A stretch of DNA of 64,000 nt from the NCBI GenBank assembly GCA_021824915.1, contig JAKAJP010000018.1, positions 596 to 64,595 of the forward strand. The letters run 5' to 3'. This stretch comes from a bacterium. Lineage in GTDB: Bacteria > Patescibacteriota > Microgenomatia > UBA8517. Below are positions 703-49,143 of the stretch, one piece after another (within the stretch, counting starts at the first letter, position 1; every line of letters begins with the position of its first letter). Made by a program: the position numbers and the translations under genes. Below the pieces are notes generated by a model, which worked only from the letters and a program-made list of their open reading frames with translations, ran no database searches and was not told the origin of the DNA.

Positions 703-747
703 TAAGCGAAGCTTGGCAAAATTTGTTTTTATGAAAGGAGGAATTTT

Positions 748-3535: not shown

Positions 3536-3537
3536 AC

Positions 3538-9862: not shown

Positions 9863-9863
9863 A

Positions 9864-13112: not shown

Positions 13113-13119
13113 GAGAAAT

Positions 13120-17055: not shown

Positions 17056-20000
17056 ATGTCGCTTATAGATAATAAAAACCAAACACTTCAAGATGCACTT
17101 AAAAACGCGTTGGTGACAGCTGATAGAGTTGATATTGCAGTCGGTTTCTTTTACTTCTCCGGTTTTGAAGCTTTGGCAAAAGAACTCAAAGACAAAAAAG
17201 TCCGTATATTGGTTGGCTTAGAAGTTGACCCCAAACTTATATCCGAAATCTCCCAAAAGGCGAAGGGTGGAGACGTTGATCTTTCCAAATATCAAACCAG
17301 AGACTCCATCAATTCCCGAACGGTTAAAAAATTAAACTACATAGACGCCTTTGTGGGCTTCATGAACGATAGTGATGTTTTCGATTCAAACAAAGCCAAC
17401 GAACTTTACGAGCTTTATATGCAAAAGATTAAAGATGGCTCTTTAGAAATTAGAAAGACGATAGACGATTATCATGGCAAATTTTACTTAACATTTAACA
17501 AAAAAGGGGTTGATCAAAATGGTGATTTGCCGGGTACGGCCTTTTTTGGCTCAAGTAATTTATCTTACAGAGGACTAAATGGACAAGGTGAATTGAATCG
17601 CTCAAGCCATGAGAAAAGTGAATTTACTGAATTGGTCGGTGAATTTGAAGAAATGTGGAGTGATTCAAAATCAATCTCAATAGCAGATACTAACACCCGA
17701 GACGAGTTTATTGAATCAATCAAACCCCGTGTTTGGAAATATAGCACACCGCTTCCGTACCAAATTTATATTAGAGTTTTACAGGAATTATTCCAGCAAA
17801 AGGAGATAGAGTCCTTAAAAACGCCTAGCACCATTACAAAAGGACTTTATATTGACCTTGAATACCAAGTCGATGCAATAAAAATGGTAATAGATAAACT
17901 CAATAAATACGATGGTGCAATTCTTGCGGATGTTGTAGGACTAGGTAAAAGTATCATTGCCTTAGCTGTCGCCAGAAACATGGATATTAAAACTGTCATC
18001 ATCGCTCCACCCCATCTAATGTCCCAATGGGAAGAATATAAAGAGCAATTTGGTATTAGAGGCTCAAAAGTTTATAGCTCTGGAAAAATACAAGAAGTTT
18101 ATGATAGATATCACGAATCAAACGAGCCAATGTTGTTTGTGCTCGACGAAGCTCATAGATTTAGAAATGAGGATACCAATGATTACAAGCTACTCCATCA
18201 GGTTTGTCGTAGTAACCCTGAAAATAAAATTCTTCTTCTAACAGCAACGCCGTTTAACAATGATCCAAAGGACGTATTTGCATTGATAAAACTTTTCCAA
18301 ACACCCGGGCAATCTACGATTCGCTCGGTTGACAATTTGAGTCTTCGTTATCGCGATCTTATTCAGCGATATAAAAAACTGCGAAGGGATATGACTAAAG
18401 GTGTGGATCAAGAATTAGTTGATAAGGAGGCCTCTGAAATAGCCGCCGAACAAAGAAGACTCATCGAAACAATTATTATCAGGCGATCGCGTCTCGATTT
18501 GGATTACATAACACGTTACCGGGAAGATTTACATCGCCAGAATATTTCGTTTGCTGAAATTAGAGGACCTGAACCCCTTGAATACGATCTCGGTGAATTA
18601 CTTGAACCTTATACGAAAACTTTAGACTTAATTATTAAACCAGACAACGAAGGGTTTATCGGGGCCAGATATAAGCCGACCTCTGAAGTCTACATGGATG
18701 ATCAAAATCGCAAAAAGTTTATCGATAAGTACAAAAGCGAGTTTGATGACATTGAAGATCTTCGAACAGCACAATCTAACTTAGCAAAATTCATGCGACG
18801 ACTTTTAGTTATGCGTTTTGAAAGTTCAAAAGATGCCTTTAGATCAACTCTCGATAAGATGATCGAGTCCAACAAATTAATTGAACACTGGTGGGATACT
18901 TTAGGATCTGTACCAATTATGAAAAAGGGGCAGCTACCAGACCCAGAAGATTACCAAAGTGAGGACGGCGAAGTAGATTCACTTTCAGATGAACTTGAGT
19001 TATTACGAAATAAAAAGGGATTACTTGAGATCAGCAAGGATATGCTTGATTCAAAGTTTATCGACGATGTACGACACGATACTAAACTTCTTCAAACAAT
19101 TAGGGATGACTGGTATTCAAACAAGAAATATGTGGAGCTTGATCCAAAACTAGATAATGTAATTCAAAAAATTCGTGATCTTTTGACTGAAAACCCAGAC
19201 AGAAAAATAGTTATATTTTCAGGTTACAAAGACACTGTAGATTATTTGTATAAGGAGATTTTGAAACGTGGCTTGGATAGAGTCGCAAAGTATACAGCTT
19301 CTGAAGGGACAGATGCCTATAAAAAAGTTATTCGCCAAAATTTTGATGCATCGCTTCCAGTAACTCAACAACAAAATGATTTTGATGTCTTGGTAGCAAC
19401 AGATGCTCTTAGCGAAGGTTTCAATCTACATAGGGCTGGAATTATTATCAATTACGACATCCCATATAATCCAACAAGAGTAATTCAAAGAGTTGGACGT
19501 ATTAATCGTATCAACAAAAAAGTCTTTGACTTTCTATATATTTATAACTGCTTCCCCACAGTAATCGGTGAAGAAGAGACCCGGGTAAAATTGATATCGA
19601 CCTTGAAAATGAAACTAATAAATGCAGTTGTTGGTAGTGATACAAAAACCCTTACCAAAGATGAAGAACTTGTTAGTTTCTTTAAAGATGAGTTTGATCG
19701 AGCAAGACGAGAAGATGAAAAACTTTCTTGGGATACAAAACATAGAGAGAATTACGAAAAATCTCTAAAAGACAAAGAACTTACGCAAAAGGTTTTGGAA
19801 CTTCCTAGAAGGAGCCGTATTAAAAGAAAGGGTCAGAAGAACTTGGGGACAATTGTTTTTGGTAAAAAAGGTCAAAACACAATTTTTACATACGGTTTAA
19901 TACCCGATGAAATAAAAGTTACGTCTGCAGAAGAATCGTTGCCCATCTTTGAATCAGAGCCTGACGAAATTGGTGATGTAGTGGATAAGAATTTTACCGA

Positions 20001-20340
20001 CGTATTTAACTTAGCTAAAGAAAAATTATTCGCAAAGCATGAGCTACCACAAATAAAAGGTAGAAGAGCAACGGCGATAAATTTATTGAAAGTAATTGCT
20101 GAAAAACTACCTACTGCTAGGAACTATTGTGAGGATATAATCTCCATTATTAAAACCCTAGATGATATTAGCGATGGATCTCTGAAGGATATTTCTCAGC
20201 TTGATGCGAATAAAATTGAAGATTCTTACAAAAAACTTCTGTCAATAATTCCCGAGGTATTTGTGAGAAACATACTAAACCGATCTCAACACACCGAATC
20301 TGCAGAAGAATTAATACTATTTGCCGAGCAATTAACATGA
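17056..20340 (+). CDS. PLD-family (single HKD-like motif) nuclease domain fused to an SNF2/Swi2-family SF2 helicase/translocase
   Basis: Residues ~130-170 '[14 protein letters not shown]...[10 protein letters not shown]' resemble the H-x-K...G-S-x-N motif of Nuc/BfiI-type PLD nucleases. SNF2 motif I is '[18 protein letters not shown]', motif II '[10 protein letters not shown]', motif III '[22 protein letters not shown]', and motifs V/VI '[42 protein letters not shown]'. Confidence 0.8.
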   Translation: [1094 protein letters not shown]

Positions 20341-23300
20341 TTCAACTACATAATGAATATCAACGCGACGACATTCTTAAATTTCTTGAAGAAGATTTTT
20401 TAACAGATTTCAAAAGAGACGTCAGACCTGTTAACACTAAAGGCCTATCCTCGATACAAAAAGCGAATTATTTAGGAGAAAGTAAAAATCTTGATCTTCA
20501 AGTTTTTGAATTTTTATTTGAAGGCTCGCCAAATAAACGCGTTGCTTTAACAAAAGACGCTTTTTCGGTAATGCGGTCAAGTGCAATCTTTCGAGCTTTA
20601 GCAGTTTTTCATTCTGCGGATAACAAAGATTGGCGTTTTTCATTAATGACGGCTACTCCCGAACCGACTGAAAAAGGTAAAGTAACTCTTTCTTATTCCA
20701 ACCCCAAACGGTTATCTTTTTTTCTAGGACCGAACGCCAAAATAAATACCCCAACGAAATTTTTAGTCAGCAAAGGGAAAGTTTTGGATTTTGAAGATTT
20801 GAAAAATAGATTTTCTATCGAAGTCGTTAATAAGGAATTTTACAAGGAAATATCCCAGGCCTTTACAAAACTTGTTTCAGGTTTGCTCAAGCTCCCCTCA
20901 ATTGAAGGTAAAAGTCAAACCAATCTTGAATTTGCGGTTCGTTTGATTGGTCGCATAATTTTCTGTTGGTTTTTGAGAGAAAAGAAAAGTCATGCTGGTC
21001 TTGCTTTAATGCCAAAGGAATTGTTATCTCTTGAGGCCATTAAAAAAACAGAAAACTATTATCACAAAATTCTTGAACCGATTTTTTTTGAAGTTTTGAA
21101 TATGCAAGTTAAATCAAGAAAGAATGATTTTGCAGAAGAACCATTTTCTCATGTCCCTTACTTAAATGGAGGATTATTTTCTCCCCAAGACGATGACTAT
21201 TACAAACGCACCAATGGCGATATTCAATCACAATTTCAAAACACACTAATAATTCCTGATAGTTGGTTCAAAGATTTTTTTGAAATTCTTGAAACTTACA
21301 ACTTTACGATCGACGAAAATACTAGCTACGACGAAGAGCTTTCTATTGATCCCGAAATGCTCGGCCGGATATTCGAAAATCTTCTTGCTGAAATTAATCC
21401 AGAGACAGGTGAATCTGCAAGAAAAAGTACGGGAAGCTATTACACACCAAGAGTGATTGTAAATTATATGGTTGACGAAAGCCTGCTTCTTTATCTGAAA
21501 GTGAAAACTAATATAAGTGAAGAAAAATTACGGGCAATTATAAGCTACGATCTGGGTGATGACGTAGAAAATCCGTTAACGGCAGGAGAAAAAGAAAAAA
21601 TTATAGATGCCTTAGAAAAAGTTAAAATTTTAGATCCCGCTTGCGGATCTGGTGCTTTTCCGATAGGTGCTTTACAGAAAATTGTGTTTATCCTCCAACA
21701 AACCGATCCAGATGGACAATTGTGGTTTAAGAAACAAATCTTGTCCACTCCTGCAGAAGTAAGGAAACTTATAGAACATGAGTTTGACCATAAGAATTTT
21801 GATTACATCAGAAAACTTGGAGTCATTAGGCAAAGCATATTTGGTGTTGACATCCAACCCGTTGCAACAGAAATATCTAGACTTCGGTGCTTTTTAACTT
21901 TAATTGTTGAAGAAACAGTGGACGACAGTGAGAAGAATCGAGGCATTGAACCCCTTCCAAATTTGGACTTTAAATTTGTTACTGCCAATAGCTTGATTGG
22001 TTTTCCCGAAGAAAAATCCGGTATTGAACAGCAAAATCTACTAGGTTCTGATGAAGGGGAAATGATTCTCCAACTCAGAAATATAATGGATGACTATTTC
22101 AACTCACACAATCACGAAAGGGAGGAATGCAAAAAAAGATTTTATGTAATAAGAGATGAGTTAAGAAAATACACGGTGAACAATAACTCGTGGAACGAAC
22201 GCACGAAATATCTTACTACTTGGGACCCATTCGGCCATGAACCTTCTTCATGGTTTGATCCTGAATGGATGTTCGGGATTAAAAACGGATTCAGCATAAT
22301 AATTGCAAACCCTCCTTATGTGGGTGAAAAAGGTAATGAAGACATATTCCATGAAGTGGCTAAAACTGAATTTGGCAAAAAATTCTACACGCGATGGATG
22401 GACTATTTCTATTTCTTTTTTCATAAGGGTATCGAGATGGGTGATAAAACCGCGGTAATCTCTTTTATAAGTACAAATTATTTTTTAACCGCTACCGGGG
22501 CAATAAAATTACGAAGAGATATTAGGGATCGGACATGTATAAAATATCTGATCAATTTTAATGAGCTAAAAGTATTCGAAGCGGCCCAAGGGCAACATAA
22601 TATAATTACAATTCTTGTAAAAGGACGAAATGAAAATGAAATAAGCCTAAATTGTGAAACACAACGAAAAGGTACAGCTTCTATCAACGAAATTCAAATG
22701 ATCCTAAACGGGAAAGACGACAAAACCTCGTATTACCAAATTCCTCAAAAATACTTGTTTGAGGGACAAGACTGTCAAATAAGGTTAAATGGTTCAACTG
22801 ACACAAATAGTGCATTGCAGAACATTTTACAAAAAATTAAACGGCAGTATTATTTTCTTGATGACGCGTGCGTAATTAGTCCAGGAGTTTTTTCCGGTGC
22901 CGATAGAGTTTCAAGCCAACATATTAAAAAATTTGGAAATTCTTTTGTCAAAAAGGGTGACGGTATTTACGTTTTAACGAAAGAGGAATTAGAAGACTTG
23001 AATCTGAGTGATGAAGATTACCAAAAGTACATAAAGAAGTTTTACAAAAATTCAGATGTTAAGAAATACTATGCCAACACCAAAAATAAATACTACCTTA
23101 TTTACATACGAGACGAGGGAAAACCAATCAAGCTATCAAAAAATCTTGAACAACATTTCTCTAAATTTGAGACGATATTAACTGGTGTTAAACGAAATTT
23201 TCTTAAAAACGCTGTTGCAAGAGAGATCGTTAAAAAATGGCTAGATAATGGAAATTATTTTGTAATGTTCCTACCAAAAAAAGAAAGTATATTTACCAAA

Positions 23301-23750
23301 CCCAAAATAATAACTCCTTATAGAAGTAGTTCTAACAATTTTGCATATGTTGAAGGCGATTGGTTTGCAAGCCAAGATGTTTATTTTATAAACCAGAAAG
23401 ACTTCTATACAGATCTAAAATATATTTTGGCTCTTCTAAATTCAAAGTTATATCTCTTGTGGATGTTTAATAAGGGTAAAAGGAAAGGCGAAACGCTTGA
23501 ATTTTACCAAAAGCCTCTTTCAGAAATACCTATTAAAAAACTTACATTGAGTGAGCAATCCCCATTTATCAAAATTGTAGAAAAAATACTATTTCTCACG
23601 AGTTCTGGCGATTATTTGACCGACTTTGAAAAACAAAAGAAAGTTATAGATTATGAAAATCAGATTGACCAATTAGTTTATAAACTCTATGACTTATCAT
23701 CAGAAGAGGTAGAGATTGTAGAAAATACCACAAAACAGTCCAATGAGTGA
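20337..23750 (+). CDS. Large gamma-class N6-adenine DNA methyltransferase (Eco57I/Type IIG-IIL / BREX PglX / DISARM DrmMI-like), with an uncharacterised ~330-aa N-terminal domain and a ~400-aa C-terminal TRD-like region
   Basis: AdoMet motif I 'ILDPACGSGAFPIGALQKI' and catalytic motif IV 'IIIANPPYVG' in the order typical of gamma-class MTases. ATGA overlap with the upstream helicase gene. Confidence 0.8.
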   Translation: MIQLHNEYQRDDILKFLEEDFLTDFKRDVRPVNTKGLSSIQKANYLGESKNLDLQVFEFLFEGSPNKRVALTKDAFSVMRSSAIFRALAVFHSADNKDWRFSLMTATPEPTEKGKVTLSYSNPKRLSFFLGPNAKINTPTKFLVSKGKVLDFEDLKNRFSIEVVNKEFYKEISQAFTKLVSGLLKLPSIEGKSQTNLEFAVRLIGRIIFCWFLREKKSHAGLALMPKELLSLEAIKKTENYYHKILEPIFFEVLNMQVKSRKNDFAEEPFSHVPYLNGGLFSPQDDDYYKRTNGDIQSQFQNTLIIPDSWFKDFFEILETYNFTIDENTSYDEELSIDPEMLGRIFENLLAEINPETGESARKSTGSYYTPRVIVNYMVDESLLLYLKVKTNISEEKLRAIISYDLGDDVENPLTAGEKEKIIDALEKVKILDPACGSGAFPIGALQKIVFILQQTDPDGQLWFKKQILSTPAEVRKLIEHEFDHKNFDYIRKLGVIRQSIFGVDIQPVATEISRLRCFLTLIVEETVDDSEKNRGIEPLPNLDFKFVTANSLIGFPEEKSGIEQQNLLGSDEGEMILQLRNIMDDYFNSHNHEREECKKRFYVIRDELRKYTVNNNSWNERTKYLTTWDPFGHEPSSWFDPEWMFGIKNGFSIIIANPPYVGEKGNEDIFHEVAKTEFGKKFYTRWMDYFYFFFHKGIEMGDKTAVISFISTNYFLTATGAIKLRRDIRDRTCIKYLINFNELKVFEAAQGQHNIITILVKGRNENEISLNCETQRKGTASINEIQMILNGKDDKTSYYQIPQKYLFEGQDCQIRLNGSTDTNSALQNILQKIKRQYYFLDDACVISPGVFSGADRVSSQHIKKFGNSFVKKGDGIYVLTKEELEDLNLSDEDYQKYIKKFYKNSDVKKYYANTKNKYYLIYIRDEGKPIKLSKNLEQHFSKFETILTGVKRNFLKNAVAREIVKKWLDNGNYFVMFLPKKESIFTKPKIITPYRSSSNNFAYVEGDWFASQDVYFINQKDFYTDLKYILALLNSKLYLLWMFNKGKRKGETLEFYQKPLSEIPIKKLTLSEQSPFIKIVEKILFLTSSGDYLTDFEKQKKVIDYENQIDQLVYKLYDLSSEEVEIVENTTKQSNE

Positions 23751-25467
23751 TCCTATCCTACATAAAAAACAAAAAGACGAAAGAACAGCACAAACAGAGG
23801 AAATTGTTAATTCCACTGAAAAGAAACGACTGATAGTGTCTGGTCCCGGAACGGGTAAAACTTTTATATTTGAGGCGGTAATTAAGAAGAACCCTACCGG
23901 AAAAAAATTAGTACTAACGTTTATCAGAAGATTGGTATCAGATATTGATCAAAAAATACAATTAAAAAATACATGCAAGACTTTTCATGAATTTGCAAAG
24001 GGATTGTTGCATAACCAAAAAGGTTCTTTTGATTTACAACCGTATTTATCAGACATCATTAAAAGAGATGCGGAGTTGTTAGGGTTAGATCTACAGGAGT
24101 TTGATACAAAATTTCAAGAACTTGATGAATATGGGTCAGAAATACCTTTTTATATTAAACGAGGTGATTACTATAATACCGTTTCATTCAATGATTCTGT
24201 ATATCGAATTTTTAAAATGGCAACAAAAGATGAAGCCGTTTTACCAGAATTTACCCAAATCATAGTTGATGAATACCAGGACTTTAACAAACTTGAGATA
24301 GAACTCATCAAACTTTTAGAAAAGCGTGGACCAATACTAATAGCTGGAGACGATGATCAAGCCCTGTATGATGGCCGTTCGGCTTCCTCAAAATATATTA
24401 AAGAGTTGTATCGATCGGGAAGGTTCAAGGTTTTTAAGCCTAAATATTGTAGTCGTTGTACGTTAGTGATAGTTAATGCCATGAATGCTTTCATCAAAAA
24501 TGTTCAGAGGTTTGGTTTTTTCAAAGATAGGATTGAAAAAAATTATGAATGTTACCTTCCAGATAAGGAGAACGATAGTGTTAAACATCAGAAAGTCGAT
24601 TTTGTTGAATGTAGCACGATAAAAACAGTGGCAAAATATGTGCGAAGAATGGCAGAAAAAATAGATGTCCAAGATATCCAAGATTCTCATAAGGGCGGGT
24701 ATCCGACCATTTTAATAATTGGTCCATCATATTATCTCAGAGTAGTCTATGAAGAACTCCAGAAGGAGTTTGCTAACATAATATTTACTCCAAGTGAAGA
24801 GTTTACTTATTCTTTAAGTGATGCTTACAGGTTACTATTGGCTGATGAATTCTCCAACATGGGTTGGAGAATATTGGCAGAATTTTCTATCGGTGAAAAA
24901 ACACTTGCGGATATAATTGCTGGGTCAGAAAACGCAACTCCAATTATCGATTTATTACCGAAGGAAATAATATCAACACACCAAAAGATCTTAGAGATAA
25001 TTAAAAGTATCACAAACAAGGATACTTTTAAAAATGAATTTGTTAATGAATTGAAAAAAACATTACCAAATAATTACACGGAAATAATTGAAAATTTTAG
25101 ATACAAAGATGAAGAACCAAAAGACGAGACTCAAATTGACAAAACAAAACCGTCGATTTTGCTTACCTCGTATAAGGGAGCTAAAGGATTGTCTGGTGGG
25201 CACGTTTTCCTTCTCGGGGCACATAACGGCTCACTTCCCAAAAATAAAGATATTATAAGTGATGTTGAGATTTCACAATTTTTAGTTGCAATGACCCGGA
25301 CTAGAAAAAAATTATTCCTGGTAAGTAACAGATGGTATATAAACCCCATGACACCAGATCACAAATTTATTGACCCTAATGAAAGAAGTATATTTATTGA
25401 TTGGATACCAAATGAATTTTTAAATAATGTAGGTTATTTAAAAAGCGATGATGTAAATAAGTTATAG
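23743..25467 (+). CDS. UvrD/PcrA/Rep-family SF1 DNA helicase (short, 574 aa)
   Basis: Walker A 'LIVSGPGTGKTF', motif II 'IIVDEYQDFN', motif III 'IAGDDDQALYDGRSAS', motif V 'LLTSYKGAKGLSGGHVFLLG' and motif VI 'VAMTRTRKKLFL'. 8-nt overlap (ATGAGTGA) with the MTase gene. Confidence 0.8.
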   Translation: MSDPILHKKQKDERTAQTEEIVNSTEKKRLIVSGPGTGKTFIFEAVIKKNPTGKKLVLTFIRRLVSDIDQKIQLKNTCKTFHEFAKGLLHNQKGSFDLQPYLSDIIKRDAELLGLDLQEFDTKFQELDEYGSEIPFYIKRGDYYNTVSFNDSVYRIFKMATKDEAVLPEFTQIIVDEYQDFNKLEIELIKLLEKRGPILIAGDDDQALYDGRSASSKYIKELYRSGRFKVFKPKYCSRCTLVIVNAMNAFIKNVQRFGFFKDRIEKNYECYLPDKENDSVKHQKVDFVECSTIKTVAKYVRRMAEKIDVQDIQDSHKGGYPTILIIGPSYYLRVVYEELQKEFANIIFTPSEEFTYSLSDAYRLLLADEFSNMGWRILAEFSIGEKTLADIIAGSENATPIIDLLPKEIISTHQKILEIIKSITNKDTFKNEFVNELKKTLPNNYTEIIENFRYKDEEPKDETQIDKTKPSILLTSYKGAKGLSGGHVFLLGAHNGSLPKNKDIISDVEISQFLVAMTRTRKKLFLVSNRWYINPMTPDHKFIDPNERSIFIDWIPNEFLNNVGYLKSDDVNKL

Positions 25468-25469
25468 AA

Positions 25470-26216
25470 ATGAATAAATACCACCAACGAGCCAGAAATT
25501 TGTATGATCCTAAATCGGATAAGCCGTTTGCTATCAGCAGAAGCAAGATCGATTTATTTTTAGAATGCCCTAGGTGTTTCTATTTGGATTGTCGGCTTGG
25601 TTTGGGGAGAACGAGTATCCCCAGTTTTTCATTAAACTCTGCTGTTGATGCCCTCCTTAAAAAGGAATTTGATCTACTCCGTAAAGAAAAGAAACCTCAC
25701 GAACTTATGACGTTGTACAACATTAAAGCAGTTCCTTTTGACCACCCAGAAATTGACAAATGGCGGGAAAATTTTGTCGGTAAAAGATATTTGCATGAAG
25801 GAACAAACCTAGAAATCTTCGGGGCAGTTGATGATCTTTGGATTAATTCCCAAAAAGAACTCTTAGTTGTTGATTATAAATCTACAAGTACAAGTAAAGA
25901 AATTTCGTTGGAAGATGAGTATAAGCAAGGATACAAAAAGCAAATGGAAATTTACCAATGGATTTTCAGAAAAAGCGGATTCAAGGTAAATGATACTGGT
26001 TATTTTGTTTTTGCCAATGCAAGTAAAGAAAAACCAAAATTTGATAAGAAGTTAGTTTTTAATCTCTCAATAATCTCCTATAAAGGTGATGATTCTTGGG
26101 TAGAACCAACAATTTTTGAAATCAAGAAATGTCTTGGTTCGGACGAAATCCCTGATTCAGATCCCGACTGTGAGTTTTGTGAATATAGAAAATTAATAAA
26201 ATCTTTTGAAAAGTAA
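25470..26216 (+). CDS. Cas4/RecB/AddB-like PD-(D/E)xK nuclease with putative Fe-S Cys cluster
   Basis: Motif II 'GAVDDLW', motif III 'LLVVDYKSTS' (the hhDYKT signature), and a Q-h-x-x-Y motif 'EIYQWIF'. Cysteines near the N-terminus (CPRCFYLDC) and the C-terminus (KKC...DPDCEFCEY) are arranged as in Cas4/AddB iron-sulfur nucleases. Confidence 0.65.
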   Translation: MNKYHQRARNLYDPKSDKPFAISRSKIDLFLECPRCFYLDCRLGLGRTSIPSFSLNSAVDALLKKEFDLLRKEKKPHELMTLYNIKAVPFDHPEIDKWRENFVGKRYLHEGTNLEIFGAVDDLWINSQKELLVVDYKSTSTSKEISLEDEYKQGYKKQMEIYQWIFRKSGFKVNDTGYFVFANASKEKPKFDKKLVFNLSIISYKGDDSWVEPTIFEIKKCLGSDEIPDSDPDCEFCEYRKLIKSFEK

Positions 26217-38684: not shown

Positions 38685-40391
38685 ATGCGAGCTCGAATTT
38701 ATCTACTAACCTTTGCGTTTATAATAGTCTTTGCGGTTCTAATTTTGAGACTTTTTTACTGGCAGATTGTAAAAGGGTCGGACCTGTCCCGTGCGGCGGG
38801 GAATCAGTATAAAGTCTCCGAAGTTACAAGTGCACCCAGAGGTAATATTTTAGCATCGGATGGCAGTTTTTGGGCACTCCGCGCTGATGCCTGGCTCGTC
38901 TTTGCCAATCCAAGTCAGATTACTGACCCCCGTGGGACTTCCGAGAAACTTGCCCCTTATTTTGTTGATGATGTGAAGGATCAGACAACGCTCCTTGATG
39001 AGATAGATAGACTAACGGGCCTTCTTTCTAAAAAAGACGCTTTCTGGGTTTCGTTAAAAGAAAGAGTTAGCCCCGATGTTAAAGGTGAAATAGAGAAGAT
39101 GAATATAAGAGGGATTGGTTTTCAAAATCAGGAGGCGAGATATTATCCGGAGGCTTCAAGTGCCGCCCAACTTTTGGGTTTTGTCGGAAAGGATAATAAT
39201 GGCGGAGATTTGGGCTATTTTGGCCTTGAGGGGTATTATAATCTTGCGCTTTCCGGTAAGTCAGGGTTTATTGGTGGAGAGAGAGACGCAAAAGGAGCAC
39301 CAATCCTGCTTGGAACGACTCAGCAAGTTGCGGCTATTGCGGGTGTGGATCTAATGACAAGTATAGACAAAAGGGTTCAGCTAATTTTGGAGACCAAATT
39401 GAGGGAAGGAATTGAAAAGTATGGGGCGAAGGGTGGATCGGTGGTGGTAATGAACCCGACTAGCGGGGATATCTTGGGAATGGCAAGTTACCCATCGTTT
39501 GACCCGGCAAAATATTGGCAGTATTCTGACTCCCTTTTTAAGAACCCGATAATCTCTGATGCCTATGAGCCGGGTTCAATATTTAAGCCAATTGTGATGG
39601 CGGCTGGCATTGACGCCGGGAAAATTAAGCCGGACACAAAGTGCGATATTTGTGGCGGTCCGTTAAAGGTGGATAAATATTATATTGAAACTTGGGACAA
39701 TAAATATCGTGACAACGAAACAATGACGGATGTTATTGTTAATTCGGATAATGTTGGTATGAGTTTTGTGGGACAAAAATTGGGGGTGGACGCTCTCTAC
39801 GATTATTTGGAAAAGTTTGGAATAGGAAAATCTTCCGGAATAGATTTACAAGGCGAAGCTGTGCCTAAGCTTAGGCAGAGAGGAACATGGAATATAGTGG
39901 ACCAGGCGACGGCAACTTTTGGACAGGGTGTGGCGGTTACTTCTATTCAGATGGTCAGGGCAATATCTACTATTGCTAATGGCGGTTATTTGGTTACTCC
40001 TCACGTTGTCACGAGTGTCCAGGGAGATGGTTGGCGCGAGGACGTTGGAAATGTTTCTAAAGTCAGAATAATCAGTAAAGATGCGGCGGGCGACGTGGCT
40101 CTCATGATGGCTACTGCAGCTCAAGACGGAGAGAGTAAATGGGCTTATATACCCGGCTTTAGGATTGCGGGAAAGACAGGAACTGCCCAGATTCCAATTT
40201 CTGGTCACTATGATGATAAAAATACAATTGCGTCGTTTGTAGGCTTTGCCCCCTATGATAGTCCGAAGTTTGTAATGCTGGTCACGCTTCAAAAGCCACA
40301 GACCAGTGAGTGGGCTTCGGAGACAGCAGCTCCACTCTGGTATTCGATTGCGGGTGAGCTATTGACTTATTTGGGTGTTCAACCTAGATAA
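38685..40391 (+). CDS. ftsI: Peptidoglycan D,D-transpeptidase, class B PBP (FtsI/PBP3-like)
   Basis: N-terminal TM and dimerisation domain. Transpeptidase motifs are SxxK-like 'SIFKP', SxN 'SDN' and KTG 'KTGTAQ'. Confidence 0.85.
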   Translation: MRARIYLLTFAFIIVFAVLILRLFYWQIVKGSDLSRAAGNQYKVSEVTSAPRGNILASDGSFWALRADAWLVFANPSQITDPRGTSEKLAPYFVDDVKDQTTLLDEIDRLTGLLSKKDAFWVSLKERVSPDVKGEIEKMNIRGIGFQNQEARYYPEASSAAQLLGFVGKDNNGGDLGYFGLEGYYNLALSGKSGFIGGERDAKGAPILLGTTQQVAAIAGVDLMTSIDKRVQLILETKLREGIEKYGAKGGSVVVMNPTSGDILGMASYPSFDPAKYWQYSDSLFKNPIISDAYEPGSIFKPIVMAAGIDAGKIKPDTKCDICGGPLKVDKYYIETWDNKYRDNETMTDVIVNSDNVGMSFVGQKLGVDALYDYLEKFGIGKSSGIDLQGEAVPKLRQRGTWNIVDQATATFGQGVAVTSIQMVRAISTIANGGYLVTPHVVTSVQGDGWREDVGNVSKVRIISKDAAGDVALMMATAAQDGESKWAYIPGFRIAGKTGTAQIPISGHYDDKNTIASFVGFAPYDSPKFVMLVTLQKPQTSEWASETAAPLWYSIAGELLTYLGVQPR

Positions 40392-40411
40392 TGCTACAAT
40401 ATGGGGCGCCA

Positions 40412-41677
40412 ATGTCGAAATTCATCGTAACCGGCGGAAGAAGACTTGAGGGAAGCATAACTATTAATGGAAATAAAAACTCCGCCCTTAAGCTTATTCC
40501 GGCTGCGCTCATTGCCGATTCTCCGTCAACTTTTACAAATGTGCCTGATATATCCGACGTAAGGGTAATGCTTGAAATTATTGAAAGTCTGGGGGCTAAG
40601 GTCAAAAAGGACGGGCATGAGATCACGATTGACCCGTCCGGTCTAAAGTCTTTTGATCTTGATCCTGATTTGTCCTCAAAATTCAGAGCTTCGGTTGTTC
40701 TTGCGGCTCCTCTATTGGTCAGATTTGGCAAAGCCATAGTTACTCCTCCGGGAGGAGATCAGATAGGTGACCGACTGCTTGATACTCACTTTAGCCTAAT
40801 GCAGAAAATGGGTGTTACTATTGAGCGCAAGGACGGCAGGTTTTATCTCGACTGGGAAAAGAGGAAGGCTGCAAAAATATTTTTGGAGGAAGCGAGTGTT
40901 ACCGCAACGGAAATGGGTTTAATTATGGCTTCTTCTATGAATACCGAAACCGAGCTAACCGATGTGGCTGCTGAACCGCACGTAAGTGACTTGGCAGAGT
41001 ATTTAGTCGCAACCGGGGCAAAGATTTCCGGAATAGGCACTAATAGTTTAGCTATAAGTGGAGGTAAGTTGCATGGTGCGTCTCATAAAGTTTGTCCCGA
41101 TCATATTGAAGGAGGAACTTTTGCGATAGCGGCTGCTTTGACAGGTGGAAAAATTGAAATTAATGATTTTGCACCGGATAAGTATCCTATGATTTTTAAT
41201 TATTTATCCTACATGGGAGTTACCTTCAAGGTCTCAAAAAATTCGGTGACGGTTTTGCCTTCAAAGTTGGTAGCCGAGAGGCGCAAGTTTCAAACCCGTC
41301 CATGGCCGGGTTTTCCGACGGATTTAATGAGTCCTTTTATTGTTCTGGCAACACAAACTAAGGGGACGGTGCTTTGTCATGACTGGATGTATGAGTGGCG
41401 GATGTTTTTTGTTGACGATCTTATCTCGATGGGTGCAAATATCTTCATTGCCGACCCGCATAGAGTGATCGTGAGCGGCCCGACTCCTCTAATGAGCGAT
41501 AGACTTTTTTGTAAGGATATAAGAGCCGGGATCTCCGTTATTTTGGCAGCGCTAGCAGCAAACGGCAGGAGTGAAATAGAAAACATTGAGGTTGTTGAAC
41601 GCGGCTACGAAGATGTTGAGGCCCGCTTCGCCTCGCTAGGAGCCCAAATTATCAAGGTCAATGGTGAAAAAAGTTAG
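40412..41677 (+). CDS. murA: UDP-N-acetylglucosamine 1-carboxyvinyltransferase
   Basis: 'MSKFIVTGGRRLEGSITINGNKNSALKLIPAALIA' is the canonical MurA N-terminus. Two-domain EPT fold length. Confidence 0.85.
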   Translation: MSKFIVTGGRRLEGSITINGNKNSALKLIPAALIADSPSTFTNVPDISDVRVMLEIIESLGAKVKKDGHEITIDPSGLKSFDLDPDLSSKFRASVVLAAPLLVRFGKAIVTPPGGDQIGDRLLDTHFSLMQKMGVTIERKDGRFYLDWEKRKAAKIFLEEASVTATEMGLIMASSMNTETELTDVAAEPHVSDLAEYLVATGAKISGIGTNSLAISGGKLHGASHKVCPDHIEGGTFAIAAALTGGKIEINDFAPDKYPMIFNYLSYMGVTFKVSKNSVTVLPSKLVAERRKFQTRPWPGFPTDLMSPFIVLATQTKGTVLCHDWMYEWRMFFVDDLISMGANIFIADPHRVIVSGPTPLMSDRLFCKDIRAGISVILAALAANGRSEIENIEVVERGYEDVEARFASLGAQIIKVNGEKS

Positions 41678-43688
41678 AGGAGTTACTTCCGATTCCAGAT
41701 TAGTTAAAGAAGGTTTTATGTTTGTGGCGATTAAAGGTCTAACTGAAGATGGCCACGACTTTATTCCGGATGCAATTAAAAACGGCGCCATAGTGATTGT
41801 GGGAGAAAAAGATCTCAAAGTTCCTTCCGGGATTAAATATGTTAAGGTTGCCGATAGCCGTGATGCCATTGGGAAATATGCCTCGGAATTTTACGGAGAT
41901 CCTTCAAACAAACTTAAAGTTATTGGGGTGACAGGCACCAAAGGTAAGACAACTACGGTTCATATTATTTACCATATTTTATCATCTTTAGGTAAGAAGG
42001 TTGGAATGGTGAGTTCGATTGCAGCAAAAGTTGGAAATAAAGAATTTGATACCGGCTTCCATGTAACAAGTCCTGACTGCCTAACACTCCAAAAGTTGTT
42101 AGCGGATATGGTTAAGGCGGGTTGCGAATATGCAGTGATCGAAGTAAGCTCTCATGGCATTAAGCAAAAAAGGATAGCCGGTGTTAATTTTGATACCGCT
42201 GTTTTAACCAATATTGCTCCCGAACATCTTGATTACCACAAAACTTTCGAGGAATATAAAAAAGTCAAAATGTCGTTTATCAATTCGGCAAAAAATAAAG
42301 TTATTTGCCCCCCAAAAACCGATATAAACATTTTGCCGGGGCTTTTTAACAACCTGAACGCTGAAGCAGCAATTCGCGCCTTATCTTTTTATGGCATTGA
42401 TAAAAATGAGGCAGTTTCAACTCTTGACTCTTTTAGGCTTCCGGCCGGGCGTTTGGAAGAGACTGAAAATGAAGGAGTAAAAATTTTTATTGATTTTGCG
42501 CATACGCCGAATTCACTTGAAGCGGCTCTAACTTACTTAAGAACAAAAACAAAGAGAAAACTAATTTCGGTTTTTGGTTGTGCCGGAGAAAGAGATAAGC
42601 GGAAAAGATTTCAAATGGGGAAAATTTCTGTCAGTTTGGCGGATTTTTCGGTCTTCACGGCTGAGGATCCGAGACGTGAGGATTTGGGCGTAATTTTAGG
42701 CAGAGTTTCTAAAGGAGCTAAGAGTGTTGGCGCGAAAGAAGGGCAGAATTTTGTCAGAATTTACGAACGCGGAGAAGCGATTGCTTACGCCCTATCAATT
42801 GCTAAAAAAGGAGACGTTATCGGAATATTCGGTAAGGGGCACGAGAAGAGCCTTGCTTATGGCTCCGAATCTTTCGGTAAAGTCTTTGAACATCCGTGGA
42901 GTGATCAGGAAGCGGTTGAGAATTACATAACTTCTGATAAAAGCATAACCGCAATTGTTTTGGCTGCAGGTAAGGGAACCAGGATGCACTCTAGCCTTCC
43001 TAAAGTTCTCCATGAAATTTGCGGCAGGCCGATGATTTCCTACACCTTGCAAAATTTGAGAAGGTCGGGCGTTAGCGAAATCATTACGGTGGTTTCTTTT
43101 AAGAAAAATTTGGTAATCCGAAAGATTTCAGGTGCGGTTAAGATTGCCGTTCAAAAGAACCCCAAAGGAGGTACAGCCGACGCTGCAAAGGCGGGTTTTG
43201 CTTTTGTACCTGATGGCACCCGAACATTAATTGTAATAAATGGGGATGACAGCGCTTTCTATACTCCGGGGACGATCAAAAATATTTTGAAGATACATAG
43301 TCAGCGCGAGCGAAAATTAACTTTTGTATCACTAATGAAAGATAATCCTACCGGTTTGGGAAGAGTTATCAGAGGGGAAAGTGGATTAATAACAAAGATA
43401 GTTGAAGAAAAAGATGCAACCGCGGAAGAACGTAAGATTAAGGAAGTCAATGACGGACTTTATGTTTTTGACAAAGCTTGGTTTTCTCAAAATATAGGTA
43501 AGGTTAAGATAAGCCCGCAAGGCGAGTATTATTTGGTTGATTTGATTAAAATAGCAATTGACCAGGGAGACAGGATGGCGACATATACGTTACCCAATGA
43601 TGATGAATGGCAAGGGATTAATACTTCTGAGGAGCTGGAAAAGGCAAGGTCTAAGATGGTAAAAAGGATTGAGGCTCTGAATGAATAA
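41661..43688 (+). CDS. murE: Fusion protein: Mur ligase MurE (UDP-MurNAc-L-Ala-D-Glu:diamino acid ligase) plus a C-terminal GlmU-like sugar-1-phosphate nucleotidyltransferase domain with no acetyltransferase LbH domain
   Basis: The N-terminal ~420 aa carry Mur-ligase motifs ('GVTGTKGKTTTVHII', 'DFAHTPNSLEAAL'). From ~aa 425, 'ITAIVLAAGKGTRMHSSLPKVLHEICGRPMISYTLQNL' is the GlmU/RmlA-type nucleotidyltransferase signature. It is one continuous ORF. Confidence 0.75.
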   Translation: MVKKVRGVTSDSRLVKEGFMFVAIKGLTEDGHDFIPDAIKNGAIVIVGEKDLKVPSGIKYVKVADSRDAIGKYASEFYGDPSNKLKVIGVTGTKGKTTTVHIIYHILSSLGKKVGMVSSIAAKVGNKEFDTGFHVTSPDCLTLQKLLADMVKAGCEYAVIEVSSHGIKQKRIAGVNFDTAVLTNIAPEHLDYHKTFEEYKKVKMSFINSAKNKVICPPKTDINILPGLFNNLNAEAAIRALSFYGIDKNEAVSTLDSFRLPAGRLEETENEGVKIFIDFAHTPNSLEAALTYLRTKTKRKLISVFGCAGERDKRKRFQMGKISVSLADFSVFTAEDPRREDLGVILGRVSKGAKSVGAKEGQNFVRIYERGEAIAYALSIAKKGDVIGIFGKGHEKSLAYGSESFGKVFEHPWSDQEAVENYITSDKSITAIVLAAGKGTRMHSSLPKVLHEICGRPMISYTLQNLRRSGVSEIITVVSFKKNLVIRKISGAVKIAVQKNPKGGTADAAKAGFAFVPDGTRTLIVINGDDSAFYTPGTIKNILKIHSQRERKLTFVSLMKDNPTGLGRVIRGESGLITKIVEEKDATAEERKIKEVNDGLYVFDKAWFSQNIGKVKISPQGEYYLVDLIKIAIDQGDRMATYTLPNDDEWQGINTSEELEKARSKMVKRIEALNE

Positions 43689-44958
43689 GCACATACATTT
43701 CATTGGCATCTTGGGTAGTGGAATTTCGGGGGTTGCAAATTTGGCATCAGAAGTTGGGTACAAGGTTACCGGATGTGATATGGAAGCGGCTTCAGCTTAT
43801 ACAACTACCGGAGAAAAAGTTTTTTTGGGGCATGACACAAAACATATAAAAGACGCCGATTTGGTTGTTGTATCTCCCGCGGTTCTTTATCAAAACTTCG
43901 ACAATCCGGAAATTGCTGAAGCAAGACGGCGAAAAATCTTAATCACCTGGCAGGAATTTTTAGGGAGAACACTTCTGAAACAAAAGAAAGTAATTTGCAT
44001 CGCCGGAACTCATGGCAAATCGACAACTACAGCCATGGCAGGACAACTTCTCGAAGCCCTTAAGTTTGATCCGTTAGTTGTTGTTGGGGCACTTATACCC
44101 GAGTGGAAAAGTAATGTTAGATTTGGGAAAGGTGAGTTTGCCGTTATTGAGGCGGATGAGTTTAATGATAATTTTCTGAATTATTCTCCTGAAATTGTGA
44201 TTCTTAACAATGTTGAGTTTGATCATCCTGATTATTTTAAGAATGAGCAGGAAGTTTTTGCCAGTTTCAAAAAATTTATTGAAAGTTTGTCTGGGGATGC
44301 AATTTTGATTACGAACTCAAATTCTTTTGGTATATCAAAACTTCTTGGTTTGATAGATCGGAAAATTAATGTTATCGATATCAAAGATTTGGACGTTGAT
44401 CTTAAATTAAAAATTCCGGGTAGACATAACATTGAAAACGCCAAAGGTGTTTATGCGCTCGGTTTATATTTGGGGATTAAAAGCTCGGATATTAAGCATG
44501 TTATATCTGGTTTTAGCGGAATAGGAAGAAGAATGGAGCTGATTGCGAGTAAAAAAGGAATTGAGGTTTATGATGATTATGCTCATCATCCGACTGCAAT
44601 AGCCGCAACCATTCAGGCAATTCGCGAAAGTCACCCCAAGGCGCGTATTTGGGCGATTGATGAGCCGCATGGCTTTGCCAGGACAAAGGCGCTTCTAAAC
44701 AAGTACAGAGGTGTTTTTGAAAAAGCCGATAGGGTTATAATCGGGCCGATTTTTGTTGCCCGAGATAGAGAAACATTTGGTATGTCGCCTAGAGCGGTAG
44801 CGGAGGCTTCCGGGTACCCGAAAGCCATCGGGGTTGATTCATATGATGCGATTGAAAAAATTCTTTCTAAAGAAATAAGACAGGGAGATGTGATTCTGGT
44901 TATGGGTGCGGGAAAGAGTTATCTTTGGACACGCAAAATTGCAAAATTAATTAAATGA
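43681..44958 (+). CDS. murC: UDP-N-acetylmuramate--L-alanine ligase
   Basis: 'HIHFIGILGSGISGVANLA' N-terminal MurC motif and a Mur ligase central domain 'IAGTHGKSTTTAM'. Confidence 0.85.
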   Translation: MNKHIHFIGILGSGISGVANLASEVGYKVTGCDMEAASAYTTTGEKVFLGHDTKHIKDADLVVVSPAVLYQNFDNPEIAEARRRKILITWQEFLGRTLLKQKKVICIAGTHGKSTTTAMAGQLLEALKFDPLVVVGALIPEWKSNVRFGKGEFAVIEADEFNDNFLNYSPEIVILNNVEFDHPDYFKNEQEVFASFKKFIESLSGDAILITNSNSFGISKLLGLIDRKINVIDIKDLDVDLKLKIPGRHNIENAKGVYALGLYLGIKSSDIKHVISGFSGIGRRMELIASKKGIEVYDDYAHHPTAIAATIQAIRESHPKARIWAIDEPHGFARTKALLNKYRGVFEKADRVIIGPIFVARDRETFGMSPRAVAEASGYPKAIGVDSYDAIEKILSKEIRQGDVILVMGAGKSYLWTRKIAKLIK

Positions 44959-48021: not shown

Positions 48022-49143
48022 ATGAAGACTTACGGATTTGTTAGGCGGTGGATGGGAATAAAATTGCCCGAAGTACACTACAAGGATAAGACCAGCTTTG
48101 TGAAAAAATTCTTTTTTCACCCTATTAAGCGTAGATTGGCGAGATGTTATCTTATTTTCCTTCAAAAATTCACCAACCTGAAAGTTATTGCAATTACTGG
48201 GAGTGCGGGTAAAACAACAACAAAAGAAATGCTATCTTCAGTTTTGAAACAAGACGGTTTGACTGTTTATACAAAGGAGAATATCGACCCGGTTTACAAC
48301 ATTCCTACAACTATATTGAGAACTCTCCCATGGACCAAATATTTAGTTTTGGAGATGGGTGTCGAATATCCGGACGAAATGGATTTTTATTTATGGCTTG
48401 CAAAGCCAGATGTTGGGATTATTACTAATATTTTTCCTACCCATACCGCATTCCTTAATGACGTTGAGGGTGTGTTTAATGAAAAGAAAAAGCTGATTTT
48501 CGGACTTTCTGAAAAGGGTGTGGCGGTTCTTAATTCCGGGGACGAGCGATTGAAAAAACTGAAGGGTAAATTGAGAACTAAGATTGTTTGGTTCTCCGCA
48601 GATATCGATCCCTTTGTTCAAAACCATAATGCCGCCTATGCCGCCGCTGAGGTGTTGAAGATAAGTAAAGAAAAAATTGAGAAAGGTCTTTCAGAATATA
48701 AAAATCCTCCGCACAGACTGGCCTTGGTCAATCTGAAATCCGGCGCGGTGCTTCTGGATGATAGCTACAACAGCAATCCCTGGGCTGCAGTCTCGACGCT
48801 TAATTATTTTAATAGTCTGGTTAAAAAGCGAAATGATGTTAGAGGTAAAAAGATTGCTGTTTTGGGAGACATGTTGGAGCTTGGAGATTTTGACGAAGAG
48901 GGTCATAGACTTTTGGGCCGCGAGGTTGCCAAATCAGGTTTTAAGACCGTCATCGGGGTGGGAAAATCAGCCGGATTTATGATTGATGAAATAAATAGAA
49001 ACTCAAAAACCACTACTTTTTTAGTTCCGGATGTTTCAAGTGCGATTTTGCTGATTAAGAAGATGCTTAACAAAGGTGTGTTTGTTCTTGTGAAGGGCTC
49101 CAGATCAATTGGGCTTGATAAACTAGTTGAAGCTCTTTCTTGA
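48022..49143 (+). CDS. murF: Mur ligase, MurF-like (UDP-MurNAc-tripeptide--D-Ala-D-Ala ligase), short form
   Basis: Mur ligase P-loop 'AITGSAGKTTTKEML'. The other Mur ligases are assigned elsewhere in the cluster. 373 aa is shorter than the typical MurF. Confidence 0.65.
   Translation: MKTYGFVRRWMGIKLPEVHYKDKTSFVKKFFFHPIKRRLARCYLIFLQKFTNLKVIAITGSAGKTTTKEMLSSVLKQDGLTVYTKENIDPVYNIPTTILRTLPWTKYLVLEMGVEYPDEMDFYLWLAKPDVGIITNIFPTHTAFLNDVEGVFNEKKKLIFGLSEKGVAVLNSGDERLKKLKGKLRTKIVWFSADIDPFVQNHNAAYAAAEVLKISKEKIEKGLSEYKNPPHRLALVNLKSGAVLLDDSYNSNPWAAVSTLNYFNSLVKKRNDVRGKKIAVLGDMLELGDFDEEGHRLLGREVAKSGFKTVIGVGKSAGFMIDEINRNSKTTTFLVPDVSSAILLIKKMLNKGVFVLVKGSRSIGLDKLVEALS

Follow-up and report, generated by a model that had tools for sequence, protein, structure and literature searches.

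A MurE ligase joined to a predicted GlmU-type uridyltransferase in a single open reading frame of Microgenomates dcw clusters

The 64,000-nt stretch analysed here (hereafter the window) is taken from contig JAKAJP010000018.1 of GenBank assembly GCA_021824915.1 (positions 596 to 64,595, forward strand), a member of the Microgenomatia, and contains a division and cell wall (dcw) gene cluster. Within this cluster, one unbroken open reading frame (ORF) with an ATG start at 41661..43688 on the plus strand encodes 675 aa followed by a stop codon. The gene, murE::glmU-N, encodes a MurE module (aa 1-423, 41661..42929, plus strand), and a GlmU-type N-acetylglucosamine-1-phosphate (GlcNAc-1-P) uridyltransferase module, hereafter the nucleotidyltransferase (NT) module (aa 429-675, 42945..43685, plus strand). 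Between them lies a short junction (aa 416-428, QEAVENYITSDKS, 42906..42944, plus strand), which is the only poorly conserved, indel-bearing stretch of the protein and overlaps the end of the MurE module; the DNA reads cleanly through it into the LAAGKGTRM signature of the NT module (42960-42986). The start of the fused gene overlaps the stop of murA (40391..41677, plus strand; 442 bits on TIGR01072, above cutoff) by 17 nt, while its stop overlaps the start of murC (43681..44958, plus strand; 347 bits on TIGR01082, above cutoff) by 8 nt. MurA consumes UDP-GlcNAc, which is also a substrate of MurG. An initial annotation of this stretch had described a continuous 675-aa ORF, just downstream of murA, that joins a complete-looking MurE to a GlmU-type NT domain without the acetyltransferase half. 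The ORF list, Pfam and NCBIfam bear out each of these points.

The MurE module has the three-domain architecture expected of the enzyme, with Mur_ligase (PF01225, aa 5-77), the ATP-binding central domain Mur_ligase_M (PF08245, aa 90-250) and Mur_ligase_C (PF02875, aa 263-393) in order, and ends with a terminal strand and helix whose last residue is aa 423. It scores above cutoff on both the murE model TIGR01085 (425.1 bits, cutoff 257.3) and the MurE equivalog NF001126 (411.5 bits, cutoff 373). These scores distinguish the module from MurC, MurD and MurF; the murF model reaches just 110 bits, and separate murC, murD and murF genes exist in the window. The closest sequence match in the PDB is Thermotoga maritima MurE (4bub, E 6.6e-71), and Foldseek comparison of a predicted model with MurE structures gave TMt values of 0.68-0.76. 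Across 120 family members, the Mur ligase P-loop G89-V-T-G-T-K-G-K-T-T-T99 (41925..41957, plus strand) is at least 97% conserved except at V90, as are E161, the H189/D191/H193 block and K392-G-H-E. MurE extends UDP-MurNAc-L-Ala-D-Glu by the third amino acid. Where the specificity motif of MurE lies, the window protein has E335-D-P-R338 (42663..42674, plus strand), with E335, D336 and R338 invariant in the family and conservation of P337 at 90% or more. This motif aligns with the DDPR of T. maritima MurE, an L/D-lysine ligase, and enzymes selecting meso-diaminopimelate carry DNPR there; the amino acid that the predicted MurE adds cannot be assigned from EDPR.

Pfam placed an NTP_transferase domain at aa 431-665 and no Hexapep match anywhere in the 675-aa protein, so the left-handed beta-helix (LbH) acetyltransferase half of GlmU is not present. 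Consistent with this, the C-terminal 253 aa cover just positions 2-241 of GlmU models that are about 450 positions long (best E 7e-64, NCBIfam). The scores on these models, 198-216 bits, are below every equivalog cutoff (367-450), and together with the absent LbH half this explains why the fused protein is not filed as GlmU. Competing NCBIfam models were weaker: RmlA matched at E 6e-15 to 2e-15, MurU at E 8e-11, and cytidylyltransferases also scored far lower, which argues against the domain being an RmlA-like or CTP-transferase enzyme, the outcome that would have overturned the initial assignment. Streptococcus pneumoniae GlmU was matched at E 7e-41 over residues 4-244 with 35% identity, and the modelled NT part superposes on that enzyme in complex with UDP-GlcNAc and Mg2+ (1g97) with an rmsd of 1.5 Å over 248 columns (Foldseek). 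Helix 656-674 corresponds to the helical arm of GlmU, and the protein stops where the LbH domain would begin.

The nucleotide-binding signature L434-A-A-G-K-G-T-R-M442 (42960..42986, plus strand) was assigned from the DNA, from alignment to 1g95/1hm0 and from family conservation, and R441 and K448 align with R15 and K22 of S. pneumoniae GlmU, respectively. A clade-specific form of the metal-binding GD motif, G528-D-D-S-A-F-Y534 (43242..43262, plus strand), has an invariant G, D and D, and its D529 corresponds to D102. Residue equivalences were derived from a HMMER alignment with the S. pneumoniae enzyme, and the counterparts of R15, K22, Q72, G77, T78, D102, G139, E154, N169, E195, Y197 and N227 were all at least 97% conserved in the family. 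We take these residues to be nucleotide, metal and GlcNAc contacts, with E154 and N169 contacting O3/O4 of GlcNAc. An AlphaFold2 model of the whole chain, built on 60 homologues, has a pLDDT of 89.8 and a pTM of 0.87. In this model the last MurE helix (415-423) is followed by 2 residues and then by strand β1 of the NT module (426-434), with junction pLDDT values of 80-92. No solved chain spanning both halves was found among the Foldseek matches.

A search of 5.8 billion clustered proteins recovered at least 120 protein clusters with Pfam content identical to that of the window protein, at 59-100% identity and 630-715 aa. One of these (P0001, 674 aa) is near-identical to the window protein, with 100% identity, and is found on 3 contigs from NCBI and ENA, while the remaining clusters, at least 119, are 59-77% identical to it. 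The fused clusters derive from NCBI, ENA, JGI and Logan assemblies, and both a closed 1.08-Mb Woesebacteria chromosome (CP066686.1) and a 609-kb contig carry the fused gene at the same place in the operon. Database names are generic ("NTP transferase domain-containing protein", "Mur ligase family protein" or MurE), and the few clusters with a named source are labelled Candidatus Woesebacteria or Patescibacteria group. In an alignment of 120 members, the MurE domains average 0.56-0.66 identity to the window protein and the NT module 0.70, while the value falls to 0.40 with 21% gaps in the junction region (aa 401-428). Judged from this alignment, the conservation profile is that of two constrained enzymes and a tolerated linker.

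To place the fusion among its relatives, one genome per GTDB species was scanned for the motifs NGDDSAF[YF] and [RKQ][KR]I[KN]E[VI]N[DI]G, which yielded 160 relatives; the 80 best loci were analysed further. Locus ORFs were annotated by BLASTP, with proteins of the window and of locus L001 as references, and informative titles among the loci comprise Woesebacteria, Woykebacteria, Curtissbacteria, Levybacteria, Shapirobacteria, Daviesbacteria, Microgenomates and WWE3. The NT module is fused to MurE in 33 of the 80 loci, forms part of an apparent MurE-NT-MurC-MurB ORF (1519 aa) in one (L031), is free-standing in 35, is fused to MurC in 7 and to a protein of the haloacid dehalogenase (HAD) type in 4. 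It is thus joined to MurE in 34 of these best 80 loci if L031 is included, all of them from Woesebacteria-like Microgenomates; a further MurE-NT locus outside the 80 (L003) brings the tally of the MurE-NT class to 34 loci. Many GTDB representative records with a Microgenomates-type dcw cluster and the clade-specific NT module bear the title "uncultured Gammaproteobacteria bacterium", and single records titled Alphaproteobacteria, Pseudomonadales and Nanoarchaeia also carry this combination (L007, L012, L015, L016, L020, L022 and ∼30 more loci in all); these titles look like placeholder or wrong taxonomy.

Four gene orders were observed. The fused group has ftsI-murA-[murE::NT]-murC-murB, and the comparison with dcw clusters of related genomes that the initial annotation had called for found murA directly upstream of the fusion in 33 of the 34 MurE-NT loci, at the same murA/murC position as in the window. 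Woykebacteria-type loci have ftsI-murE-[NT]-murC-murB-murA, Curtissbacteria-type loci ftsI-murE-[NT::murC]-murB-murA, and Levybacteria-type loci murE-murC-murA-[NT]-X-HAD-glmS, where X is a variable slot. Nine unfused loci were examined at the murE/NT boundary, and 7 of them show an overlap of 1-14 nt between the end of murE and the beginning of the NT gene.

The NT module alone was also searched against 1.84 billion representative proteins, and a sample of its closest relatives was checked by Pfam, PDB or BLASTP. No canonical GlmU was found in this sample. The closest relatives are MurE-NT fusions, many free-standing proteins of ∼250 aa, and fusions of the types NT-MurC, NT-HAD, NT-HAD-GNAT (where GNAT is a GCN5-related N-acetyltransferase), NT-APH-kinase and peptidase_C39-NT; all NT modules tested are GlmU-N by NCBIfam. 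The NT-MurC proteins (P0129, P0141 and P0234; L040, L041, L044, L045, L049, L050 and L054) are ∼663-699 aa long, carry the NT module at the N-terminus of MurC and belong to the Curtissbacteria type. P0129 and P0141 share 35-36% identity with the window MurC over its full length (E ∼1e-90) and 45% with the window NT module. The NT-MurC arrangement mirrors the window fusion. NT-HAD fusions comprise P0128 and genes of 463-490 aa at L057 (9983-11392), L061, L081 and L083. With a length of ∼470 aa such proteins could be mistaken for GlmU, and relatives of ∼480 aa that we considered as canonical GlmU proved to be NT-HAD wherever they were checked (P0128, L057, L061, L081 and L083). P0157 (626 aa) is an NT-HAD-GNAT triple fusion, P0182 an NT-APH-family kinase fusion and P0218 a peptidase_C39-NT fusion. 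In a neighbour-joining tree of NT modules every fusion type falls into one exclusive clade, with bootstrap values of 3/100 for MurE-NT, 16/100 for NT-MurC and 83/100 for NT-HAD. The tree and the common synteny suggest, and do not demonstrate, a single origin of the MurE-NT fusion, which we do not claim from a bootstrap value of 3/100.

Collectively, these data make it probable that the 675-aa gene encodes a genuine two-enzyme polypeptide, composed of MurE and a monofunctional GlmU-type uridyltransferase, that arose by fusion of neighbouring genes. The MurE module would be the ligase that adds the third amino acid to UDP-MurNAc-L-Ala-D-Glu, and the NT module would convert GlcNAc-1-P and UTP into UDP-GlcNAc that feeds MurG and the neighbouring MurA. 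Under the proposed origin, an LbH-less glmU-N would already have been a member of the dcw operon in Microgenomates, situated between murE and murC, where stop codons overlap the starts of the following genes. Loss of the murE stop in a Woesebacteria-like lineage would then have merged murE with glmU-N, and a separate stop loss elsewhere would have merged the NT gene with murC. Judged from gene orders, fusion of overlapping neighbours is the simplest and most likely account of the origin. The resulting protein would carry two independent activities, fix a 1:1 ratio of the two enzymes and co-localise UDP-GlcNAc supply with the Mur enzymes, with fixed stoichiometry, co-translational assembly and recruitment of precursor supply to a Mur complex as plausible benefits.

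Several observations weigh against this interpretation. Neither a source of GlcNAc-1-P nor an acetyltransferase for the pathway was found in the 64-kb window, in ∼10 kb upstream of it or in ∼2 kb downstream of it. Specificity for GlcNAc-1-P is predicted from homology and from the presumed roles of active-site residues, and the window protein has V in place of T199, one of the residues by which GlmU contacts the sugar. The high pTM might mean that the two modules share a real, selected interface, beyond neutral adjacency. In addition, a single fusion event lacks statistical support in the NT tree.

The possible interface leads to the alternative that survives best, namely that the fusion is a functional device, in which a fixed contact between the modules would anchor UDP-GlcNAc synthesis in a cytoplasmic Mur complex or allow the level of UDP-sugars to regulate MurE. 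The very short structural linker and the pTM of 0.87 for the whole chain agree with such a role, as do the persistence of the fusion over a deep lineage (NT identity down to ∼41%), the independent joining of the NT domain to a second Mur ligase, MurC, and the published view that Mur chimeras stabilise the Mur complex (PMC10214165). However, a free-standing NT is retained in about as many lineages (35 of 82 loci), and the many kinds of neighbour fusion in these operons suggest a general tendency. The enzymology does not favour a device either. The GlmU-N reaction precedes that of MurA, and the MurE reaction follows four steps later, so the two reactions are not consecutive and substrate channelling between them is unlikely. 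Because the steps are non-adjacent and the domain has MurC or HAD as its fusion partner in relatives, the fusion seems to have followed from the adjacency and overlap of the genes and not to serve channelling. The earlier proposal that the fusion physically links UDP-GlcNAc synthesis to a late cytoplasmic step of peptidoglycan synthesis thus holds in that both modules lie on one chain, but not as a link between adjacent steps. We regard a selected functional device as possible but rather unlikely.

A second alternative concerns the substrate of the NT module, which could be a MurU-like MurNAc-1-P uridyltransferase that supplies the Mur ligases directly with UDP-MurNAc in a salvage shortcut, or could act on GlcN-1-P or Glc-1-P. 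AmgK (an APH-type kinase) and MupP (a HAD protein) are reportedly the MurNAc salvage enzymes of Pseudomonas, and their families recur among the NT fusion partners, with an APH-family kinase in P0182 and HAD hydrolases in P0128 and P0157. As in MurU, the acetyltransferase half is absent, and the T199 to V change affects the sugar site. The domain is nevertheless clearly GlmU-derived, with 198-216 bits on GlmU models against 42.2 bits on the MurU model NF045761 (cutoff 250, E 8e-11), the equivalents of the presumed GlcNAc contacts E154 and N169 are invariant, and murA and murB are kept in the operon, so UDP-GlcNAc is needed anyway. A different specificity is therefore improbable.

Still less probable is that the NT module is an inactive remnant or a UDP-GlcNAc/UTP sensor. 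It has lost its usual trimerising LbH partner, and in some genomes a second, archaeal-type GlmU encoded beside the NT gene could carry out the chemistry. Against this, conservation reaches at least 97% at the catalytic Arg and Lys, at the Asp and Asn that bind metal and at the residues contacting uracil and sugar, and no other part of the fused protein is as conserved as the NT module. In addition, Escherichia coli GlmU cut back to its N-terminal part keeps its uridyltransferase function in vivo, and an LbH-less enzyme from Capnocytophaga canimorsus is active in vitro (PMC4358021). Finally, an assembly or sequencing error that merged separate murE and glmU-N genes, which the initial annotation had asked to be excluded, can be rejected: although the murE/NT overlap of sister lineages spans just a few nucleotides, so that a 1-nt error could mimic a fusion, and a suspicious four-module ORF occurs on the related contig L031, the architecture is shared by at least 120 non-identical clusters from four assembly sources, including the closed chromosome, with a linker that is in frame and variable in length, and a local missing stop or frameshift is thereby excluded.

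The predicted two-enzyme protein raises the question of where the amino sugar is acetylated. The 64-kb window encodes no glmS, glmM, YvcK, HAD, GNAT or archaeal-type GlmU, and its flanks (∼10 kb upstream and ∼2 kb downstream) contain just further polysaccharide and housekeeping genes. The sole hexapeptide protein of the window (2918-3535) was considered as the lost GlmU half and rejected, since it is a WcaF/WbbJ-type polysaccharide O-acetyltransferase (E 1.6e-26), sits in a glycosyltransferase cluster and matches GlmU over 47 residues only. The second NTP-transferase of the window (12054-13112) is ManC-like, not GlmU-like. The search for a separate glmU or LbH acetyltransferase suggested by the initial annotation thus found none in the window or its flanks, while relatives show several separately encoded candidates.

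Some of these candidates are LbH proteins. At L034, an NT gene (9923-10741) and an LbH gene (10745-11416, 223 aa) lie in one frame with a TAA and one codon between them, and the 223-aa product is a genuine acetyltransferase half of bacterial GlmU (E 6.5e-44 against C-terminal constructs of the E. coli enzyme); this split GlmU could also be an interrupted gene or a sequencing error. LbH-only genes begin 3-7 nt downstream of the NT gene at L074 (NT 6344-7084, LbH 7087-7725, in different frames) and L080 (NT 10004-10735, LbH 10742-11383). At five further loci a protein of 415-425 aa with both NT and LbH domains is encoded next to the NT gene (L028 8613-9860 on the minus strand, L057 8721-9980, L068 10743-11996, L075 8721-9998 and L082 10736-11989), and at L083 (12240-13583) a 447-aa NT+LbH protein is encoded ∼4.7 kb from it. 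The two NT+LbH proteins tested scored 262 and 286 bits on TIGR03992 (archaeal-type GlmU), just below the cutoff of 292.

In Levybacteria-type loci, the slot between NT and HAD-glmS is occupied by a GNAT (L070 10675-11187, L076, L078 and L079), an archaeal-type GlmU (L068 and L082) or an LbH-only GlmU C-terminal protein (L074 and L080). In the MurE-NT Woesebacteria, the interval from murA to murE::NT often holds a YvcK-family gene, glmS and a divergently transcribed GNAT or HAD-GNAT; loci with a HAD-GNAT fusion located between glmS and murE::NT are L012 (7505-8677, minus strand), L010, L013 and L021. The YvcK/GlmR-family gene is present in 23 of the 34 MurE-NT loci, within the dcw cluster beside glmS and the fusion, and is absent from the window. 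The sole copy scored (L001, 6254-7270) reached 231 bits on TIGR01826 (cutoff 196), a family of UDP-GlcNAc-binding proteins; GlmR is reported to be an accessory uridyltransferase in Listeria. Two more specific identities were tried and are unsupported. The GNAT encoded beside glmS in L001 had no match to the glucosamine-6-phosphate N-acetyltransferase GNA1, and a profile of the Woesebacteria-type GNAT gave generic GNAT matches only, while GNA1 structures appeared in the middle of the list for the Levybacteria-type profile (E ∼1e-6). For the HAD protein, considered as a possible mutase like beta-phosphoglucomutase, the best profile matches were uncharacterised HAD proteins and N-acylneuraminate-9-phosphatase, with no beta-phosphoglucomutase among them, so its profile is closer to phosphatases of sugar phosphates. 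This protein may substitute for a mutase or may serve as the phosphatase of a phosphatase plus anomeric-kinase bypass, as in MupP-AmgK-MurU.

From these neighbour associations in relatives, a separately encoded acetyltransferase is the best guess. The amino sugar may be acetylated by a separate enzyme, the type of which appears to be lineage-dependent (LbH in some, GNAT in others), or the step may be avoided by salvage of GlcNAc, which would be equally viable where no partner is linked, as in this genome. A broader and tentative proposal is that the Microgenomates dcw operon holds a dismantled and re-assembled UDP-GlcNAc pathway, in which GlmU-N stands alone (fused to MurE, MurC or HAD), the acetyltransferase half of GlmU can be exchanged for a GNAT or an archaeal-type GlmU in one gene slot, a HAD protein replaces or bypasses GlmM, and YvcK/GlmR and GlmS are encoded alongside. 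If so, MurE::GlmU-N would be the visible piece of a non-canonical but complete UDP-GlcNAc route, and the repeated fusions would mark a physically coupled assembly of precursor supply and Mur ligases. If these leads fail, the fusion would be an ordinary fusion of neighbouring genes.

Monofunctional GlmU-N proteins have a biochemically established precedent in GlmU_Cc (Ccan_15070) of C. canimorsus, which also occurs in many Bacteroidetes (PMC4358021). C. canimorsus is a GlcNAc auxotroph that lacks GlmM and salvages GlcNAc, and the truncated GlmU_Cc is its essential uridyltransferase (PMC4358021). Like GlmU_Cc, the window NT is a GlmU-N-like domain without the acetyltransferase domain, and its clade also has abundant free-standing members of ∼250 aa. 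In contrast to the free-standing GlmU_Cc, it is fused to MurE inside a dcw operon, and some of its relatives adjoin glmS. Compared with bifunctional GlmU from S. pneumoniae (1G97) and E. coli (1HV9), the window NT is a full-length homologue of the N-terminal domain (35% identity, LAAGKGTRM) with the L(A/G)AGKGTRM signature and conserved equivalents of R15, K22, D102 and N227, but it is set apart by the clade motifs GTADA and NGDDSAFY, and the protein lacks the LbH domain, and hence the LbH-mediated trimer, and has MurE attached. The likeness to MurU, which works with AmgK and MupP, is confined to the absence of an acetyltransferase and the fusion of NT relatives to an APH-type kinase and HAD; the GlmU derivation and the retained murA and murB set it apart.

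Natural Mur chimeras of six kinds have been surveyed (MurE-MurF, MurC-Ddl, MurC-MurB, MurG-MurC, MurD-FtsW and MraY-MurG), one of which has been solved (PMC10214165). Chimeras between non-consecutive enzymes are known and have been argued to support the Mur complex (PMC10214165). The window protein resembles them as a Mur ligase joined to an adjacent peptidoglycan-pathway enzyme in one lineage-conserved ORF, but its partner is the precursor-supply enzyme GlmU-N instead of a Mur, Ddl, FtsW or MraY protein, a type that is absent from the survey. The survey left out unidentified species and hence covers no metagenome-assembled genomes of the Candidate Phyla Radiation (CPR) (PMC10214165). We found no published description of a MurE-GlmU fusion, although literature coverage was incomplete and absence is not proof. 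The initial suggestion that such a protein had not been described thus stands for the fusion, but an LbH-less GlmU-N was already known (PMC4358021) and only the fusion partner is unusual. MurE-GlmU-N is an uncatalogued Mur chimera, fixed in one CPR lineage, for which fusion of overlapping neighbours is the best explanation.

This chimera would add a new type, a Mur ligase with a precursor-supply enzyme, from a radiation outside the published survey, and Mur chimeras are used both to argue for a cytoplasmic Mur complex and, as stable constructs, in structural studies. The Woesebacteria-like CPR bacteria also keep a conserved GlcNAc-1-P uridyltransferase that is, by its sequence, apparently competent. 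This bears on statements about UDP-GlcNAc import, as two other CPR organisms, TM7x (PMC10768705) and a Gracilibacterium (PMC6851277), are stated to be unable to make UDP-GlcNAc. In addition, the split GlmU, the exchange of GNAT and LbH proteins in one slot, the HAD-GNAT and NT-HAD-GNAT fusions beside glmS and the YvcK gene provide candidates for the acetyltransferase that a 2026 preprint postulated in species with the N-terminal GlmU half only, and a candidate substitute for GlmM. The larger value of the fusion lies in giving access to the mosaic UDP-GlcNAc module of Microgenomates dcw clusters.

Other neighbour fusions and inserted genes were seen in the related dcw clusters. MurC-MurB fusions of ∼730 aa occur at L001 (13097-15289), L003 (11973-14174), L005-L008, L018, L021, L024, L029 and L030, MurB-MurD fusions at L016, L019 and L046, and a MurC-MurB-MurD triple fusion at L052; in the window, murC and murB are distinct genes with a 4-nt overlap. 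The 1519-aa ORF of L031 (2292-6851, plus strand), which combines MurE, GlmU-N, MurC and MurB, is found on a 7-kb Woesebacteria contig and may be a real four-enzyme chimera or the result of an indel error at the NT/murC overlap. One Woesebacteria subgroup carries a 354-aa ORF between murE::NT and murC::murB (L001 12036-13100, also L006 and L007), with weak alpha/beta-hydrolase Pfam matches (E 3e-4) and no PDB relative by sequence. Woykebacteria-type loci have a YfiH/YlmD-family gene between NT and murC (L038 10743-11498, L039 2342-3121, L047 10740-11462, L053 1951-2706 and L075 10753-11487), the top PDB match of which is YfiH (6dzd, E 1.4e-30); this family presumably corresponds to the peptidoglycan editing factor PgeF.

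Elsewhere in the window, the MurF protein (48022-49143) is short, with 373 aa and no Pfam match to the Mur ligase N-terminal domain, and scores 246.7 bits against a murF subfamily cutoff of 288.6. The window cluster includes murI and has no ddl or alr, both of which occur in the clusters of several relatives. A large surface-polysaccharide cluster fills positions 1-13770 and continues upstream of the window (L085), with multiple GT4 and GT2 glycosyltransferases, a Wzy-like polymerase, PMT_2 proteins, the WcaF-type O-acetyltransferase (2918-3535), ManC (12054-13112) and an initiating sugar transferase (13120-13770). Between 16000 and 26200 the GC content drops to 0.33-0.37, compared with ∼0.40-0.43 in the flanks, and this stretch encodes a PLD/SNF2-type helicase (17056-20340), an Eco57I/MmeI-type methyltransferase-restriction protein (20337-23750), a UvrD-like helicase (23743-25467) and a PD-(D/E)XK nuclease (25470-26216), which together look like an acquired restriction or defence island.

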